Source: an uncultured Candidatus Peribacteria bacterium (GTDB lineage Bacteria > Patescibacteriota > Gracilibacteria > UBA4473). From it: a stretch of DNA of 46,685 bases. Both the position numbers and the translations under genes were made by a program. The stretch lies in assembly GCA_964459435.1 (NCBI GenBank), contig CAYWLU010000002.1, forward strand, positions 1 through 46,685. The letters run 5' to 3'. Of this stretch, positions 23,187 to 30,623 are shown one piece after another. Under the pieces are notes generated by a model. It was not told where the DNA came from and did no database searches. It saw only the letters and a list, made by a program, of their open reading frames with translations. Position 1 is the stretch's first letter; each line of letters opens with the position of its first letter.

Positions 23187-24364
23187 AAAAACTAGTCTCT
23201 AATCAAATATCTCCCAATTTTACTTTTACAGACAGTCTGTATGCAGTAAAACAGATATTTGTTTCTAATTCTCAAAAAAATACAGCATATTATAATATAC
23301 TATTCACTAAACACTTTGGTACAGAAAATTTCTTCTTAACTAACGCCATTCGTACTGGACTAGCTAAAATCATAGAAGCAACTAATCCCTCTAAAAAGAA
23401 AAAAATAGGCATACCTGCTTTTATTTGTGCCGTGGTGGCTACCCCCTTTTTAAAGGAAAACTATGAAATAGAGTGGTTAGATACCGACAATAATGGAGTC
23501 ATTTCTTTGGAAGAATTCAAGAAAAAAGCAGATAAGCTTTCTGTTATCGTAGTTCCTCACATTTTCGGACAAAAAGCACCTTTAGAAAGAATTTTTAGCA
23601 TAGCCCAAGAGAAAAATATTCTAGTTATAGAAGACTGTGCTCATCTTTTTGAACTCCAAAATCACCCTCCTATGCATTGCGATGTCAGAATCGCAAGTTT
23701 CGGAAGAGAAAAAGTCTTTTCTTGTGTGTCTGGTGGAGCAGTAATTTGGAATAAAAAATCTCAATTTTTTACGAATAAAACCTTTAAATTAGAAAAGGCT
23801 AGCAAAGGCTGGACTATCCGTCATGCCCTGCAACCCTTAATTTTTGCTTTAGCTATTCCTTGGTGGAACTGGGGAGGTAAAATAATCCCTTATTTAGCTA
23901 GTAAAACAAAATTATTGCCCAGAGCAGTCACAAACTCAGAAAAGAAAGGAAAAGAAGACTTCCCTCTTTATGCTCTTCCCGTAACTCAACAAAAAATCTT
24001 GTTAAGTAAATTACAAAAAGCAGACCAAATCATTGCTCACCGCAAGAAACTAGCTATCGCTTGGAAAAAAACTCTCACTAAACTTTTTCCAGAAGCCAAA
24101 ATAATTGTGCCAGATAATGCTTTTCGAGTAATTCTAAAAACAGAACGCAAACAAATAGTATCTAAGGCTAAAAAATCAGGATTCAATCTCCACGAATGGG
24201 ATGGTATTCCTATTTCTCCTGCTGGTACAGATTTAAAGAAATTCAACTATCAACTTGGACAATGCCCAAAAGCAGAACACTTTGCCCAAAATTATGTTAC
24301 TTTTCCGACAAATATCAGAACCAGTTTGAAGGATATCGAAATTTTTGAGAAACTCTGGTCATAG
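23183..24364 (+). CDS. DegT/DnrJ/EryC1/StrS family PLP-dependent aminotransferase
   Basis: HIFG, IEDCAH, SFGREK..SGG, CPKAE. Confidence 0.85.
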   Translation: MKKLVSNQISPNFTFTDSLYAVKQIFVSNSQKNTAYYNILFTKHFGTENFFLTNAIRTGLAKIIEATNPSKKKKIGIPAFICAVVATPFLKENYEIEWLDTDNNGVISLEEFKKKADKLSVIVVPHIFGQKAPLERIFSIAQEKNILVIEDCAHLFELQNHPPMHCDVRIASFGREKVFSCVSGGAVIWNKKSQFFTNKTFKLEKASKGWTIRHALQPLIFALAIPWWNWGGKIIPYLASKTKLLPRAVTNSEKKGKEDFPLYALPVTQQKILLSKLQKADQIIAHRKKLAIAWKKTLTKLFPEAKIIVPDNAFRVILKTERKQIVSKAKKSGFNLHEWDGIPISPAGTDLKKFNYQLGQCPKAEHFAQNYVTFPTNIRTSLKDIEIFEKLWS

Positions 24365-24408
24365 CTAAACAAAAATAAAATGGCACAAATAAAAAATATG
24401 CATATGCA

Positions 24409-24543
24409 GTCATTCTGGCTTGTCCAGAATCCTGTCCATAAATATCCTGCATGGGAATGTTCGTGCCTATCCCAACATAATTGCCGTGCTAACGCTTATA
24501 AATATGATAAATTCACTTCTGATTCTGGACAAGCCAGAATGAC
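24409..24543. mobile_element. 135-bp MITE-like element (family B subtype) with 23-bp perfect TIR
   Basis: GTCATTCTGGCTTGTCCAGAATC...GATTCTGGACAAGCCAGAATGAC; inverted homolog at 43736-43870. Confidence 0.8.
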
Positions 24544-24582
24544 TACTAACTGTGATAGACTGTGTTCCTAATCATCCTTTAA

Positions 24583-25716
24583 ATGAATTTTTTCTTACAA
24601 AAAATCCCCGCTTCTCAACTAGATAATTTCTATAACAGTTTTTCTAGAGATAAAACGTTCTTGCAAACATCTAAATACGGAGATTTCCGAGAACAACTAG
24701 GAGAAAAAAACTTCCGTTTTGGAATCTTTTTTGGTGACCAACTTGTAGGAATTGTTCAACTTCAAAAAATCAAAGCTAGGCGAGGAACTTATCTTCATGT
24801 TCCACATGGACCACTAATTAACCTTAAACATCAAGACCCAGCTCTCAGCCTCTTTCTGCAAGAATATAAAAACTTAGGAAAAAAAGAGAAATGTGATTTT
24901 GTTCGTATCTCTCCACTGGTTTCTCCAGACACAAAAAATATATTTAAAAAAGAAAAATTCATCTCTGCTCCAGTACATTTAGTTAATCCAGAACTTACTT
25001 GGGTACTGGATCTAAAACCAAAAGAAGAAGAGCTTCTAAAGAATATGAAAAAATCTACTCGTTATGAAGTAAGACGCATCGAAAAAGTAGGAATCAAAGT
25101 CACCCAAGGAAATTCTAAAAAAGAATTAGATACTTTTTGGCAACTTCATGAAGAAACTGTTAAAAGACAGCATTTCATTCCTTTTGCCCGCGCAACTACG
25201 GAAAAAGAATTAGAAATTTTTGGAAACGACCTACAGATATTTTCTTCTTATATGGAATTTGATGATTCTACTGAATCTCCTGAATTTGATGAAAGTAAAG
25301 GAAAAATCGAGGAACGGAGTAAGCCGTATTGTAGTCATACTGCGTCGAGTACCGCAGATTTTGACAAAGAACTTCGCAAATTCAGGAGATTCTATTCAAG
25401 TTCTATTATTCTTTTTGATAACCACGCTGCCTACTACCACCAAGGAGCCTCTATTTACTCCAAACTACCTGTATCTCACGCCACTCTTTGGACAGCAATT
25501 CTAGAAGCTAAAAAGAGAGGTTGTCAGGAATTTAATTTCTGGGGAGTTTGTCCAGAAAACAATAAAAAACATCCTTGGTATGGATTATCTAGGTTTAAAC
25601 GAGGTTTTGGTGGAGAAGAACGAGAATTTATTCATGTACAAGATTATCCATTAACAACGAAATATTGGCTTAATTGGCTAATAGAAAAATGGCGTAAATG
25701 GAAACGAGGGTATTAA
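24583..25716 (+). CDS. FemAB/FemX-family peptidoglycan bridge aminoacyltransferase, with 40-aa insertion
   Basis: FLQT, VPHGP, LDL, MKKSTRYEVR, FNFWG, GLSRFKRGFGG. Confidence 0.9.
   Translation: MNFFLQKIPASQLDNFYNSFSRDKTFLQTSKYGDFREQLGEKNFRFGIFFGDQLVGIVQLQKIKARRGTYLHVPHGPLINLKHQDPALSLFLQEYKNLGKKEKCDFVRISPLVSPDTKNIFKKEKFISAPVHLVNPELTWVLDLKPKEEELLKNMKKSTRYEVRRIEKVGIKVTQGNSKKELDTFWQLHEETVKRQHFIPFARATTEKELEIFGNDLQIFSSYMEFDDSTESPEFDESKGKIEERSKPYCSHTASSTADFDKELRKFRRFYSSSIILFDNHAAYYHQGASIYSKLPVSHATLWTAILEAKKRGCQEFNFWGVCPENNKKHPWYGLSRFKRGFGGEEREFIHVQDYPLTTKYWLNWLIEKWRKWKRGY
25273..25392 (+). mobile_element. 120-bp palindromic element inserted in frame in femX
   Basis: 16-bp perfect TIR GAATCTCCTGAATTTG; 99/120 identical (ungapped, inverted) to 27858-27977. 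Confidence 0.88.
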
Positions 25717-25727
25717 ACCTCAGTGTC

Positions 25728-25848
25728 GTCATTGCGATCGGGATGATTTTTAGACGAGGAACGAGTCGAAAAGCATGCCGAGAAGCAATCTATTATTTAT
25801 TTTAACAAAAAAAACAGATTGCCACGTCGCCTTGCTCCTCGCAATGAC
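25728..25848. repeat. REP-like family A element
   Basis: GTCATTGCGA...GAAGCAATCT...AGATTGCCACG...CTCGCAATGAC; close to 29257-29374. Confidence 0.85.
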
Positions 25849-25921
25849 GATGTTGTAGTACGAGAGGCTACTTGCTCATATTTATTTTTTCTATACAATT
25901 TCAAAAATTAACTTTTAAAAT

Positions 25922-26224
25922 ATGCCTAAAGTAAAAATAACTGACAAATCTGGAAAAAAGATAACCGAATTCGAAGGTAACTCCAAAGATTCTCTTGGAA
26001 CTCAAGCTCAAGAAAATGGTTGTCCTATTTCTATGCCCTGCATGGCTGGAGCTTGCGGAGGATGTATTGCTAAAATCAAACAAGGAAAAGAATGTTTAGA
26101 TCCAGAAGCTCTAGGACCTGCTCATTTTCCAGTAGAAGACGATGAAGTTTTAGCTTGTATTTGTGGAATAAAGAAGGATACCTCTAAAGACTCTGAAATA
26201 GAAATCGAAGTAGATAACGTCTAA
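25922..26224 (+). CDS. 2Fe-2S ferredoxin
   Basis: CMAGACGGC...LAC motif. Confidence 0.9.
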   Translation: MPKVKITDKSGKKITEFEGNSKDSLGTQAQENGCPISMPCMAGACGGCIAKIKQGKECLDPEALGPAHFPVEDDEVLACICGIKKDTSKDSEIEIEVDNV

Positions 26225-26297
26225 AAAATTGACAATCCTTCTATTTTTCATAGAATTCTCACGCTTCTAAAATAAGAAGGTTGATAATTAAACAACA

Positions 26298-26507
26298 ATG
26301 GCTCGAGCAACTAAAAAACGATCTTTCTTCTCTCTCTTTTGTACTGTTTGTAAAGAAAAAGACGGAAAACAACGAGAAAATTATAAAATTTTAATTAATA
26401 CTCAAAACCAAAATCCTAAAGAGTTTCAACTAAGAAAATTTTGTCCTACTTGTAGAAAGCATAATATTCACAAGGCTAAACAAATATCTCGAGCACAAAA
26501 TAAGTAG
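26298..26507 (+). CDS. rpmG: 50S ribosomal protein L33 (Zn-ribbon type)
   Basis: CTVC...ENY...LRKFCPTCRKHNIH. Confidence 0.9.
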   Translation: MARATKKRSFFSLFCTVCKEKDGKQRENYKILINTQNQNPKEFQLRKFCPTCRKHNIHKAKQISRAQNK

Positions 26508-26548
26508 AAATTAGATAACAAGATCATAAGATTACGAGATAACAAGTA

Positions 26549-26564
26549 GTATATTATAATATAA
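26549..26564. repeat. TTATATTATAATATAA variant (15/16) inside a longer inverted repeat
   Basis: CAAGTAGTATATTATAATATAATATACTACTACTTG. Confidence 0.7.
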
Positions 26565-26633
26565 TATACTACTACTTGTGATCTTGTCTCATATCCCTTG
26601 TCCCTTTGTTTTTTTTATGTAAAATTTAAATTG

Positions 26634-27854
26634 ATGAAAAAATTTTTTGAAACCATTTCCGAAAAAATCAGTGAAATAAATGAAATAAGAGAAAAACATT
26701 TAAATAAAAAGATAAAGAAAACAATGGAACAAAAAAAGAGTCTTTTTAATAATCAACCTAAAGTAAAAAAAGAAAAACTAGAAATAGAAATAGCCGCAGG
26801 AACAGTAGTAAAAATACTAATTATTATTGCCATCTTCTTTGCTTTAGGAGAAATATTTATTCAATTAAAGAGTATTTTAATAGTCACTATTATTTGTTTC
26901 TTTTTAGCCATGGGCTTATCTCCTATAGTTTCTGCCATAGAGAAAAAACACATTCCTCGTCCAATAGCCATCCTAATTCTCTATATTTTATTTTTAGGAG
27001 TTATAACTATTTTATTTGTTCAAATTATTCCGATTCTAGCAGAACAACTCTTTTCTATTGCCTATGACCTTAAAGAATTTTTTGCTACTAACGAACATAC
27101 TGAAATTCCTTTCTTAAATAAAATTTTCACAATCTTTCAATTTGATCCACTGGAAGCCGAAAAATTTATTGCAGATAATCTAACTGCTATTTCTAAAAAT
27201 CTACAAAGCGTAGCCGGATCAACATTTTTAATTCTAAGTGAAATATTTCAAGGAGTATTTAATTTTATTTTTGCACTAGTAGTTTTATTTTTTATTTTAA
27301 TGGAAAGAGAGCAAATAGGTCACTTCTTTCTAGCACTTATTCCAGGAAAAGAACGAAAATACTTTTTAGATAAAACCCTTGTCATTCAAAAGAAAATGTC
27401 TGATTGGTTTAGAGGACAAATTATTCTCATGATATCTATTGGACTAGCAATGTATGTCGGAATGAAGATTTTTGAACATTTTTTTGACATGCCATATGCA
27501 GCCACTATTGGACTCTTGGCTGGAATTATGGAACTTTTCCCCTATGTGGGAGTTTTAATCACCGGAATCCTTTCTGGATTAATTGCTCTAAATGTTTCTT
27601 GGATATTAATGTTACTGGTTATTGCTTGGATGATACTTATCCAATTTTTAGAAGGAAATTTACTAGTTCCACTTGTTATGGAAAAAGTGACGGGACTTCC
27701 TTCTGTAGTAGTAATTCTTGCTTTAGCTGTTGGTGGAGTATTAGGAAATGCCGCAGGAGGCGTTCCTTTGTCTATTCTAGGTATGATTTTATCAATTCCG
27801 ATAGCAGCATCTGTAGGGATATTTGTAGATGAATATGCGAAAAAGAAACACTAA
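26634..27854 (+). CDS. AI-2E family (PerM-like) transporter
   Basis: Multiple TMs; WFRGQ, ELFPYVG, QFLEGNLLVP, ILSIP. Confidence 0.9.
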   Translation: MKKFFETISEKISEINEIREKHLNKKIKKTMEQKKSLFNNQPKVKKEKLEIEIAAGTVVKILIIIAIFFALGEIFIQLKSILIVTIICFFLAMGLSPIVSAIEKKHIPRPIAILILYILFLGVITILFVQIIPILAEQLFSIAYDLKEFFATNEHTEIPFLNKIFTIFQFDPLEAEKFIADNLTAISKNLQSVAGSTFLILSEIFQGVFNFIFALVVLFFILMEREQIGHFFLALIPGKERKYFLDKTLVIQKKMSDWFRGQIILMISIGLAMYVGMKIFEHFFDMPYAATIGLLAGIMELFPYVGVLITGILSGLIALNVSWILMLLVIAWMILIQFLEGNLLVPLVMEKVTGLPSVVVILALAVGGVLGNAAGGVPLSILGMILSIPIAASVGIFVDEYAKKKH

Positions 27855-27857
27855 ATA

Positions 27858-27977
27858 GGGGTTGCTGAATTTGCGAATTTCTTCGTCAAAACCTGCTGTA
27901 CTCGACGCAGTATGAGTACAATACAGCTTACTCCGTTCCTCTCTTTTTCCTCGACTTTCATTAAATTCAGCAACCCC
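27858..27977 (-). mobile_element. 120-bp palindromic element, TA-flanked, second copy
   Basis: TA-GGGGTTGCTGAATTT...AAATTCAGCAACCCC-TA; supplies the prmC stop codon. Confidence 0.88.
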
Positions 27978-28791
27978 TAAATATTCTGCTAAACCTAGTT
28001 TCTTCATTCAGATCTTCAAAAAACTCTATTTCATAATCAGAAAAAATCTGAGATATTTCCTCTTTTTGCAATGGCAAAAACTCTAACCATAATTCATTGA
28101 ACACAATCTGTTTATCTTTGATTTGAACGGCTAATTCTCTAATTAACCCTAAACCATCTCTTCCTGCAAAAATAGCCCCTCTGGGCTCTTTTTCGACCTC
28201 TGGGGAAACTTCTATTTCTTCTGGAACATAGGGAAGGTTAGCAGTAATAATATTAAAAGAAGAATTTAATGAAATTTTAGATAAAAGATCCGATTTAATA
28301 AACTTATTATTCTTTATCTCTAGATTCTGAATATTATATTTTGCTACCTTTAAAGCTTTTGATGACTTATCTAAAAGATAAATACTTACTTCTGGAAACT
28401 TTTTAGCTAAAAATATAGCTATATTCCCCGACCCAGTCCCAATATCTAGAATAGATTCTATTTTAAAATCCCTCTTTATTGAACAAATTTTTTGTACAAG
28501 AATCTCTGTTTCGTCGCGAGGAATCAAAACATTCTTATTTACTTTTATTCTAAACCCAGCCCAATTTTTATATCCTAAAATGTAAGCTAAAGGAATTCTC
28601 TTCTTTCTTTGTTGAACAAAAAATTTGTTCAAGAAATATTGCCACCAAGATATTTTTTTATGAGAATTCGTTTTTAAAAATATGCGATTGCAATGTAAAA
28701 CCTCACAAAGTAAAACTTCCGCCTCTAATTTTGGATTGTCTAAATCTTTTAATTCTCTTGTTGCCAAACCCAAAACATTTTGTATTTCCAT
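27967..28791 (-). CDS. prmC: Release factor glutamine methyltransferase PrmC/HemK
   Basis: PLAYILG, VLIPRDETE, LDIGTGSGNIA, ANLPY, GRDGL. Confidence 0.93.
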   Translation of the reverse strand: MEIQNVLGLATRELKDLDNPKLEAEVLLCEVLHCNRIFLKTNSHKKISWWQYFLNKFFVQQRKKRIPLAYILGYKNWAGFRIKVNKNVLIPRDETEILVQKICSIKRDFKIESILDIGTGSGNIAIFLAKKFPEVSIYLLDKSSKALKVAKYNIQNLEIKNNKFIKSDLLSKISLNSSFNIITANLPYVPEEIEVSPEVEKEPRGAIFAGRDGLGLIRELAVQIKDKQIVFNELWLEFLPLQKEEISQIFSDYEIEFFEDLNEETRFSRIFRGC

Positions 28792-28850
28792 GTATCTCAA
28801 AAAAGTATAGAAAAAAATACATTATTCAACAAGCTAGAAGTTACACGAAC

Positions 28851-28981
28851 TAAGATCTTGCTAAAAAATACCGTTATGCGAGGCGTAGAACGAAAAGCAA
28901 AGCGATGGCGTACATAAACTGTACGAAGAGCTGCTTTTTGATCTACAACGAAGGAAAAGGGTGTTTTTTAGCAGATCCCTA
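28851..28981. mobile_element. ~130-bp TA-flanked palindromic element
   Basis: Imperfect TIR TGCTAAAAAATACC / GGTGTTTTTTAGCA; central CGTACA..TGTACG hairpin; right end coincides with rpsU stop. Confidence 0.65.
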
Positions 28982-29185
28982 GCTCAAAAACTGTTTCTTT
29001 TTAGTCTCAGCTCTATGTTTCTCTCTAACCACTGCCGCATTACGAACATCTATTTTACGAGGACTCTGTCTAAAATAACGGAGCGTTCTAAACTTTTGAA
29101 GAAGTCTTCTAGATTTAATATGATTAGAAAATCGCTTGAGCAATTTATCACCAGATTCACCGTCTCGTTTCAATACCTTTATCAT
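28979..29185 (-). CDS. rpsU: 30S ribosomal protein S21
   Basis: MIKVLKRDGESGDKLLKRF...RYF basic S21 pattern. Confidence 0.8.
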   Translation of the reverse strand: MIKVLKRDGESGDKLLKRFSNHIKSRRLLQKFRTLRYFRQSPRKIDVRNAAVVREKHRAETKKKQFLS

Positions 29186-29399: not shown

Positions 29400-30623
29400 T
29401 TAATCTAAGGGACTAAACGTAAAAACTGCAAAATCTCTATTTTCAAATCCTATAGGAGCAGATCTCAAACTTCCCGTTCTTTCTGAATTTTCTTTATTAA
29501 AAACACTGATCATTGAAGCATCTGCCTGCAAAACAGATATTTTCCCTAGTCCAGTTCTAGCATAATAACTTTCTTCAGGATTAAATTTAAGTTTTACTCT
29601 AAAAACCTTCTCTTCTTCAGGTTCTATGTTCATATCAATCCCACCAAAGAAAATCGTACCTGTTCTATTTACTGCTTCTTCTAAAATCACCCCAGCACCT
29701 CGAAGCTGAACTAAAAAACTACTAGTAGGACCCTGATTAGTTGATTCAAAACGAAGTCTCAGTTCCATTGAATGCAAAACAACTCGATCATCTAAAGTAT
29801 TTTTCATTCGTATTGTCCCAAAATCTACCCAATCAGAACTCAATAAAACTTCTAATTCTTCTTCTCTAGGAACGACATCAAGTGAAACCTGTTTTTTTTC
29901 AATATCAAAACCTTGTTTATTAGGATTAAAATCTCTTGGTTTTATGGCTGTACGCCTCGCATCTCGTCTATTTCCGGTAGCAAACTCATTACTTTTAGAC
30001 TCACCCATTAAACGAGGTTTTTGAACAATTTCTGAAATCATCCAAGCAGCATCAGCTCTACTTACTGGGTCGGAAGGATTGAATTTATTCGATTTTTCCC
30101 GAATAAGCCCATTAGCCGATAAATTAAAAACTGGCTCCGCAAACCAAATCCCTGCTGGTACATCTTCAAACCCAGGGTCTTCCTCTTTTTCTAGCTCAAA
30201 AGCACGCATGATTAAAGTCGCCCATTCTGCCCGATTCACAATTTTCTCTGGACGAATTGTTCCATCAGGAAAGCCCTTTATCCACCCTCTATTTGCCGCT
30301 TCTATCACCGCCCCAGAAAACCACTCTCCGCGAGGAACATCCGAAAACTCTATGTCTTTAACTCGTCCACTATCCTCAAAATCAATTCCCTTTGTCCGAA
30401 AAATAATAACTAAAGCCTCAGCCCTATTCAATTCTTTATTAGGCTTGAAAGTACCATCCCCAAATCCAGTAATAATTTCCTTTTCTTTCACTCTTTCTAC
30501 AGCTGAAATTGCCCATTGTGGAATATCTGCATCATCTTGATAACGAAAAACTTGAGCAAAAACAGTAGAAAAAAATCCTAAAATTACAACAACCGTTCCC
30601 AGTAAAAAATGCGATCTAAACAT
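29400..30623 (-). CDS. S-layer homology (SLH) domain secreted protein
   Basis: Signal peptide; three SLH repeats (GFGDGTFKPN..NRAE, FSDV..WF, GFPDGTIRP..NRAE, SRAD). Confidence 0.9.
   Translation of the reverse strand: MFRSHFLLGTVVVILGFFSTVFAQVFRYQDDADIPQWAISAVERVKEKEIITGFGDGTFKPNKELNRAEALVIIFRTKGIDFEDSGRVKDIEFSDVPRGEWFSGAVIEAANRGWIKGFPDGTIRPEKIVNRAEWATLIMRAFELEKEEDPGFEDVPAGIWFAEPVFNLSANGLIREKSNKFNPSDPVSRADAAWMISEIVQKPRLMGESKSNEFATGNRRDARRTAIKPRDFNPNKQGFDIEKKQVSLDVVPREEELEVLLSSDWVDFGTIRMKNTLDDRVVLHSMELRLRFESTNQGPTSSFLVQLRGAGVILEEAVNRTGTIFFGGIDMNIEPEEEKVFRVKLKFNPEESYYARTGLGKISVLQADASMISVFNKENSERTGSLRSAPIGFENRDFAVFTFSPLD

Follow-up and report, generated by a model that had tools for sequence, protein, structure and literature searches.

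The stretch of DNA analysed here, called the window throughout, comprises positions 1 to 46,685 of the forward strand of contig CAYWLU010000002.1 (contig C2 of its genome), from an uncultured Candidatus Peribacteria bacterium (Gracilibacteria; assembly GCA_964459435.1). It carries femX, a gene for a cell-wall enzyme of the FemAB family, and further along a convergent pair of genes for an AI-2E family transporter and for PrmC; one copy of a palindromic repeat lies within femX and a second between the convergent pair (Table 1). We describe this repeat as a MITE (miniature inverted-repeat transposable element) and ask what its presence means for femX. The genome amounts to 937,885 bases (0.94 Mb) in 119 contigs at 35% G+C and is 95.6% complete, and the homologues of its FemX carry the name Candidatus Gracilibacteria. 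Gracilibacteria are known to read TGA as glycine. We tested this code (table 25) and rejected it here: TGA is confined to the extreme ends of the long open reading frames (ORFs) of this genome, so that table 11 applies, and all ORF statements below use it.

Table 1. Features of the window at and around the two repeat copies (TIR, terminal inverted repeat)
Feature	Position	Strand	Description
MITE copy 1	25273..25392	+	120 bp; 16-bp perfect TIR; in frame as FemX residues 231-270
MITE copy 2	27858..27977	-	120 bp; between convergent genes; TA at 27856-27857 and 27978-27979
femX, FemAB-family aminoacyl-tRNA-dependent peptidoglycan branch transferase	24583..25716	+	377 aa, against 335 aa in orthologues; intact ORF with insert; PF02388
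Remodelled left junction	25258..25272	+	TTT GAT GAT TCT ACT (FDDST) replaces the 3-residue loop of orthologues; left TA reads CT
AI-2E family transporter gene	26598..27854	+	TAA stop 3 nt short of copy 2
prmC (release-factor glutamine methyltransferase)	27967..28800	-	PrmC_N and methyltransferase domains

Copy 1 runs through the femX frame as 40 open codons, translated as ESPEFDESKGKIEERSKPYCSHTASSTADFDKELRKFRRF; its first 16 nt are the reverse complement of its last 16, and the corresponding perfect TIR of copy 2 is 15 bp long. The reverse complement of copy 2 matches copy 1 without gaps at 99 of 120 positions, and BLASTN with the element core (positions 8-113) gives 89.6% identity with E = 1.7e-35 against the 937,885-base genome. 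Copy 2 is open in the equivalent frame as well (peptide GVAEF...KFSNP). Ten of the 21 differences between the copies make up five compensatory pairs in the terminal stem, joining positions 2, 3, 4, 5 and 7 with 114, 116, 117, 118 and 119. A preliminary description of this DNA had reported the 40-codon in-frame segment with its 16-bp perfect TIR, the 99/120 ungapped identity to an inverted, TA-flanked and equally open copy, the five compensatory pairs and the position of that second copy at the prmC 3' end (the prmC ORF runs 11 nt into it), and we find each of these in the sequence. Both copies fold into long hairpins, copy 1 at -40.8 kcal/mol (z = -4.9) and copy 2 at -43.1 kcal/mol (z = -5.8), and none of 200 dinucleotide shuffles folds as well as either. 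They belong to a sub-lineage with GAAAGT instead of GAAGTT that happens to be open in two forward frames. Rfam yielded no credible match over window positions 24000-29000 (E <= 1), and nothing between 25650 and 26650 reached the gathering score.

The two copies belong to a larger family. An iterated nhmmer search found 16 copies genome-wide, 12 of them complete (119-120 bp), two at contig ends, one half and one degenerate; no further TIR matches occur in the genome. Eleven of the 12 complete copies have a TA on the left and 11 of the 12 on the right, the femX copy being without the left one. Pairwise identity among copies is 73-88% (median 80%), and the family must therefore be old. In an alignment of 13 copies (the 12 complete ones and one from another genus), a single rod-like hairpin extends over the whole element, with 40 pairs, 95% of cells paired and both sides changed at 17 pairs. 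Not one of five hairpin measures was equalled in 500 column shuffles, and sliding the partner by 1-3 columns lowers pairing to 27-46%. On the aligned strand, G-T wobble pairs outnumber A-C mismatches by 33 to 9. The family and its structure are thereby demonstrated, and it shows features by which MITEs are recognised: a size below 200 bp, multiple copies, absence of a transposase gene, TIRs, terminal 5'-TA-3' and a long stem-loop. Contigs C13 (positions 1-100) and C6 (positions 1-97) both start inside a copy, which makes the repeat one cause of the fragmentation of the assembly and means that the true copy number may exceed 16.

Beyond this genome the element is scarce. A DNA search of 40 relatives, two of them same-genus genomes, did not find it. 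Among 400 genomes of the class, one full copy was detected, in G262 only, a member of the same family and another genus; this copy is 122 bp long and intergenic, with a perfect 16-bp TIR and compensated arms, and has no TA flanks. In the same 400 genomes G303 gave a weak partial match, and the other seven matches listed were short (E 0.002-0.009). Two 25-nt G262 matches (L066, L067) lie inside a coding gene and are attributed to chance. A pattern scan of genome contigs returned two matches, L052, which we likewise dismiss as chance, and L053, from a Candidatus Nomurabacteria metagenome-assembled genome, which is intergenic and has only the subterminal arms in common (nhmmer E = 2.6e-5). The same scan of viral contigs returned none.

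All 15 copies other than the one in femX are intergenic; most lie 0-24 nt from the 3' end of a gene or overlap it by 1 or 11 nt, and many sit between convergent genes. The overlaps follow from the ends of the element, which supply the stops in question: TA with the first G of the element makes TAG, the next frame reads AGG-GGY-TRC-TGA, and the third is the frame read through in femX, so that two of three incoming frames are closed within 11 nt. For prmC, whose ORF extends 11 nt into copy 2, the element thus provides the last three codons and the TGA stop. The copy at C8:8411-8529 likewise gives the last codons and stop to a convergent 504-aa gene (C8:8519-10033). At C35:190-311 the degenerate copy overlaps what is predicted as the 5' end of a 245-aa ORF; the first start codon of this ORF, at 265, falls within the element, from which its start region or promoter may derive.

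Such placement could also be read as function: the repeats might be structured elements in their own right, such as bidirectional terminators or mRNA-stabilising hairpins, with the femX copy accidental or regulatory. Covariation is strong over all 120 nt and not just at the ends, nearly all copies lie directly behind stop codons, often between convergent genes, and tracts like TAAATA and TATTTA flank the hairpin. Orientation relative to the neighbouring genes is mixed, though (of the tandem cases, the C33 copy is sense and C4b and C19 are antisense), and a simple terminator and promoter scan of the window flagged neither MITE copy. The element is moreover dispensable, because the same-genus genomes are without it and syntenic sites are empty, while its TA flanks, its TIRs and its occurrence at contig ends are what one expects of a mobile repeat. 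We therefore consider a primarily functional origin quite unlikely; a secondary role in termination is compatible with a mobile one.

The reading that we favour, and hold to be very probably correct, is that the repeats constitute an undescribed family of TA-flanked hairpin MITEs, of a class already known, and that the copy in femX has been kept in frame within a permissive loop. The preliminary description had called the family possibly undescribed, which accords with our literature search: among the papers listed, titles and the openings of abstracts contained no description of MITEs in CPR bacteria (members of the Candidate Phyla Radiation, also called Patescibacteria).

The polarity of the femX event is demonstrated by comparison with orthologues, an alignment that the preliminary description had suggested. 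Of 63 orthologues in the alignment, 57 have a loop of 3 residues at the insert site; it has 6 residues in two, 4 and 11 in one each, 45 in the FemX of the window (P0001) and 42 in P0004, an orthologue from a different assembly, and only these last two carry the long insert. Relative to insert-free orthologues, the window gene has gained a net 126 nt and P0004 a net 117 nt, 9 nt apart and both multiples of three. The closest element-free relative, L016, which encodes the 335-aa P0005, reads GAA CAA AAA ATG TGT TCA at the site, and its syntenic AI-2E/prmC spacer is without copy 2 while synteny is kept; at the copy 2 site this spacer has diverged beyond alignment. A contig from the independent run X4 joins 25244 to 25393 through 22 other letters (..GAA CAA AAA ATG TAT TCA..). 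This empty femX site contains a single TA, located in the Tyr codon, which matches the right flank of the copy; it is the left junction of the filled site that has been remodelled. Contigs of the metagenome runs showed no empty femX site from the same strain. Judged by these sequence comparisons, the femX copy is a derived insertion.

Remodelling of the left junction is required because a plain 120-nt insertion duplicating TA would add 122 nt and an in-frame TAG. An 11-nt direct repeat of the inner TIR of the element, GAATTTGATGA, is found at 25255-25265, and the same 11 nt thus occur twice within 25255-25292, 27 nt apart, once at the upstream junction and once at element positions 10-20. The stretch upstream of the femX element ends GATTC-TA, resembling an element right end. 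The duplication may be a scar of the junction remodelling or of an older copy.

A chimeric join induced by the repeat might have placed the element in femX: repeats break this assembly, two copies lying at contig ends, and the contigs of run X2 stop at the element. Yet one contig of run X1 covers all of this stretch and agrees with it at every position (this run is possibly the source of the assembly), P0004, from an independent assembly, shares the insert and its site, and the frame continues on both sides into conserved FemX sequence. We give an assembly artefact almost no credence.

The preliminary description had also likened the repeat to Rickettsia palindromic elements (RPEs) and proposed a coding-compatible family. 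The first part is borne out by the sequence, in that a repeated, palindromic, gene-less element sits in frame and adds a peptide as RPEs do. The second does not extend to the family: only the femX copy, out of 16, lies within a gene, just six of the 12 complete copies are open in the frame read in femX, and the element together with a TA measures 121 or 122 nt, neither a multiple of three. A search of a collection of 5.8 billion clusters with query residues 229-270 covered proteins of 207-660 aa, where the peptide turned up only in the FemX proteins P0001 and P0004, and proteins of 30-206 aa, where it gave no match.

In these two FemX lineages, retention in frame is demonstrated. P0004 is identical to P0001 at 204 of 224 positions in the N part, 34 of 40 in the element and 93 of 107 in the C part (90% outside the insert), and the two have diverged by an in-frame 9 nt at the junction. 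This bears on another alternative raised at the outset, that the segment is lost on the way to the protein, whether the hairpin is processed or spliced out of the RNA or ribosomes bypass it, leaving a mature FemX without the 40 residues. In its favour, the sense-strand hairpin is very stable (-40.8 kcal/mol), and G-T exceeds A-C by 33 to 9 on that strand across copies. Against this, no Rfam family matches, intron families included; the frame is already open, so nothing needs removing; and both insert lineages keep the frame, with the 9-nt difference and the 34/40 peptide identity, an upkeep for which an excised segment would have no need. An enzyme of the RNase III type that cut the hairpin would sever the mRNA and would not rejoin it. 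Removal is accordingly very improbable to us, and we expect that the loop is translated.

Several comparisons suggest that femX is still a working gene. FemX matches the Pfam FemAB domain (PF02388) at E = 5.5e-35 and has the tandem-GNAT Fem fold, which places it in the FemAB family; its best Foldseek matches are 6snr (S. aureus FemX, E = 1.4e-20), 1lrz (FemA) and 1ne9 (Weissella FemX). All 43 invariant columns of the 63-sequence alignment are kept in P0001. In Tajima-type counts of unique changes with P0007 as outgroup, P0001 has 14 against 14 in the insert-free P0005, and P0004 has 12 against 17; counted against P0006, the figures are 9 versus 20 for P0001 and 10 versus 26 for P0004, the insert-bearing proteins being the slower. 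Equal or slower rates together with the kept invariant columns give no sign of relaxed constraint, and the host protein is demonstrably not accelerated.

The contrary proposal is that femX is dead or dying, the insert being a disruption that happens still to be open, while a paralogue does the work. A second FemAB-family ORF does exist in the genome, a 345-aa reading frame at C8:6683-7720 that lies 690 nt upstream of the MITE copy at C8:8411-8529, and a simple insertion at the TA would have produced a TAG and a frameshift. What we see instead is an intact 377-codon ORF with every family-invariant residue in place, a structural model that is confident outside the loop, no acceleration relative to insert-free orthologues (14 vs 14 and 12 vs 17), and a second lineage that keeps both gene and insert intact at 298/332 identity. 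A dying femX is thus distinctly improbable.

In the structural model, a check that the preliminary description had proposed, the insert falls into a loop of low confidence that connects two strands. An AlphaFold2 model built on the 63-sequence alignment has a mean predicted local distance difference test score (pLDDT) of 91.2 and a predicted template modelling score of 0.88; pLDDT falls below 50 at residues 238-247 and 249-261, between strands 217-227 and 266-278, and the model is confident elsewhere. The insert has almost no secondary structure in it. The loop position in the model is clear, and the insert would form a tolerated surface loop of about 42 residues, mostly disordered; the model and the conservation data both fit the tolerated surface loop that the preliminary description had offered as one of its two alternatives. 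HMMER alignments to solved chains stop at query residue 230 (FemA 249) and resume at 270 (S. aureus FemX 303), and the coiled-coil domain of S. aureus FemX is given as residues 235-297 (PMC8280954). From this sequence alignment and the published domain limits, the MITE appears to sit at the one place of the fold where relatives carry a large excursion.

Two further ideas follow from these data. Since the insert occupies the site of the coiled-coil arm and is conserved at 34/40, on a par with the enzyme, the loop might have been exapted as a new surface arm, for example for contact with tRNA, membrane or a partner; and since covariation extends over the whole length and G-T exceeds A-C by 33:9, the family might be kept as a strand-specific structured nucleic acid and not through ends to which a transposase binds. 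We regard either as unlikely on present evidence. If true, exaptation would be a case of domain accretion from selfish DNA caught in the act in a minimal-genome CPR bacterium.

For the favoured reading, that of a mobile MITE family with one copy kept in a FemX loop, we propose the following history. The family would have spread in the past with the help of a transposase, either lost from the assembly since or never part of it, presumably an enzyme that duplicates TA on insertion. Copies would have survived almost only in short spacers behind genes, a survival favoured by the element ends because these close two of three incoming frames within 11 nt. One copy would then have landed in femX, at the tip of a beta-hairpin loop for which most orthologues use 3 residues, and remodelling of the junction would have brought it into frame. 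Transcribed and translated along with femX, it would now give the enzyme a mostly disordered surface loop, about 42 residues in length, which is tolerated.

Several observations weigh against this account. The 119-contig, 95.6%-complete assembly contains no match to the transposase-related domains DDE_3 (PF13358), Y1_Tnp (PF01797), DDE_Tnp_1 (PF01609) or rve (PF00665). Target-site duplication is unproven from filled and empty sites, and a simple TA-duplicating insertion at the Tyr codon requires an extra, assumed change that restores the frame. The outermost 7 bp of the element are its most variable part and covary, which is unusual for ends that a cut-and-paste transposase binds. Differences between the femX and prmC copies are distributed over codon positions 1, 2 and 3 as 7/9/5, so that the copy-to-copy comparison shows no selection at the protein level, and the second FemAB paralogue could buffer a weakened FemX.

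We had considered whether the outer 7 bp derive from hairpins that pre-existed at the targets and rejected this, as they form a graded homologous series in which positions 1 and 6 are invariant. As to the enzyme, Transposase_1/mariner (PF01359) has no match in this genome and none in any control genome, and its absence is hence uninformative; PF07282 gave one sub-threshold zinc-ribbon match, at C3:41617-41715. Neither a partner insertion sequence with matching TIRs nor a transposase of the IS630/Tc1-mariner group was found in this fragmented, 95.6%-complete assembly, where such absence is no proof. Lacking both a partner and proof of target duplication, the family is not assignable to IS630-type elements.

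Other repeats and genes lie near the two copies. Downstream of femX (25725-25900) there is a conserved core of about 33 nt at 25816-25848 (...ATTGCCACGTCGCCTTGCTCCTCGCAATGACG...), whose partner, in inverted orientation, lies near 25727-25738; neither a tRNA scan downstream of femX nor Rfam at 25725-25900 gave a match. In four metagenome runs this core reaches summed contig depths of 146-418 on many unrelated contigs that diverge on both sides, from which we take it to be a very widespread short repeat module. The AI-2E/prmC spacer contains TTAGTTA/TTAGCTT-type heptamer repeats in place of the MITE in L016 (L016:13275-13330) and GGATAGAA-type repeats in L017, indicating that short tandem repeats pad this spacer in relatives. 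On the minus strand at 29400-30623, a 407-aa ORF encodes three S-layer homology domains (Pfam E = 1e-29); it lies near a cell-wall cluster comprising a Mur ligase gene, a DegT-type aminotransferase gene and femX.

The family documents MITEs in the Candidate Phyla Radiation, in the class Gracilibacteria, and indicates that selfish repeats are carried and tolerated even by a genome as small as 0.94 Mb. For the enzyme, femX offers a clean natural experiment that shows one place at which a large insertion into the Fem fold is accepted. For annotation, the repeat accounts for an odd 42-residue insert in a cell-wall enzyme, for an altered PrmC C-terminus and for several contig breaks. It reveals no new mechanism. 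Hairpin MITEs with TA ends that fuse in frame to genes are already described (PMC2229807, PMC10969869).

Bacterial MITEs are characterised as A+T-rich elements below 200 bp with TIRs, 5'-TA-3' termini and target duplications, whose transcripts fold into long stem-loops and whose ORFs are often fused in frame to genes (Delihas 2008, PMC2229807). By their descriptions there, the Correia/NEMIS elements of Neisseria, the ERIC/IRU elements of enterobacteria and the RUP elements of pneumococcus are close in kind to the family reported here: non-coding and below 200 bp, with TIRs and TA ends, with transcripts predicted to fold into a single long stem-loop, chiefly intergenic and occasionally fused in frame to an ORF. 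The present family differs from them in its host, a CPR bacterium with a 0.94-Mb genome, in matching no Rfam family, in having its greatest, and covarying, variability in the outermost 7 bp, and in being without a partner insertion sequence, whereas RUP is linked to IS630-Spn1 (PMC2229807).

A 2024 review calls in-frame MITE-ORF fusions 'not unusual' and singles out the RPEs for their frequency (PMC10969869); in R. conorii nearly half of 44 RPE copies are reported to lie in ORFs, with a conserved peptide per family (Ogata et al. 2000, as given in PMC10969869). As RPEs are described, the femX copy resembles them in being a palindromic repeat of about 100-150 bp whose in-frame position within the gene of a housekeeping enzyme extends the protein by a peptide compatible with the fold. 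The hallmark of RPEs, frequent in-frame insertion into unrelated genes with an ORF conserved across the family, is absent here: one copy in 16 is in a gene and six of 12 have the frame open, in a lineage unrelated to Rickettsia.

At the level of the protein, the nearest parallel is the coiled-coil arm of staphylococcal FemA and FemX and of pneumococcal MurM. In staphylococci about 63 residues fold into this arm as an antiparallel two-helix domain, whereas the insert here has about 42 residues, comes from mobile DNA and is modelled at pLDDT <50, and the two are not homologous; both are nonetheless extra segments at the same place in subdomain 1B, residues 230-270 of the present FemX corresponding approximately to 235-303 of S. 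aureus FemX.

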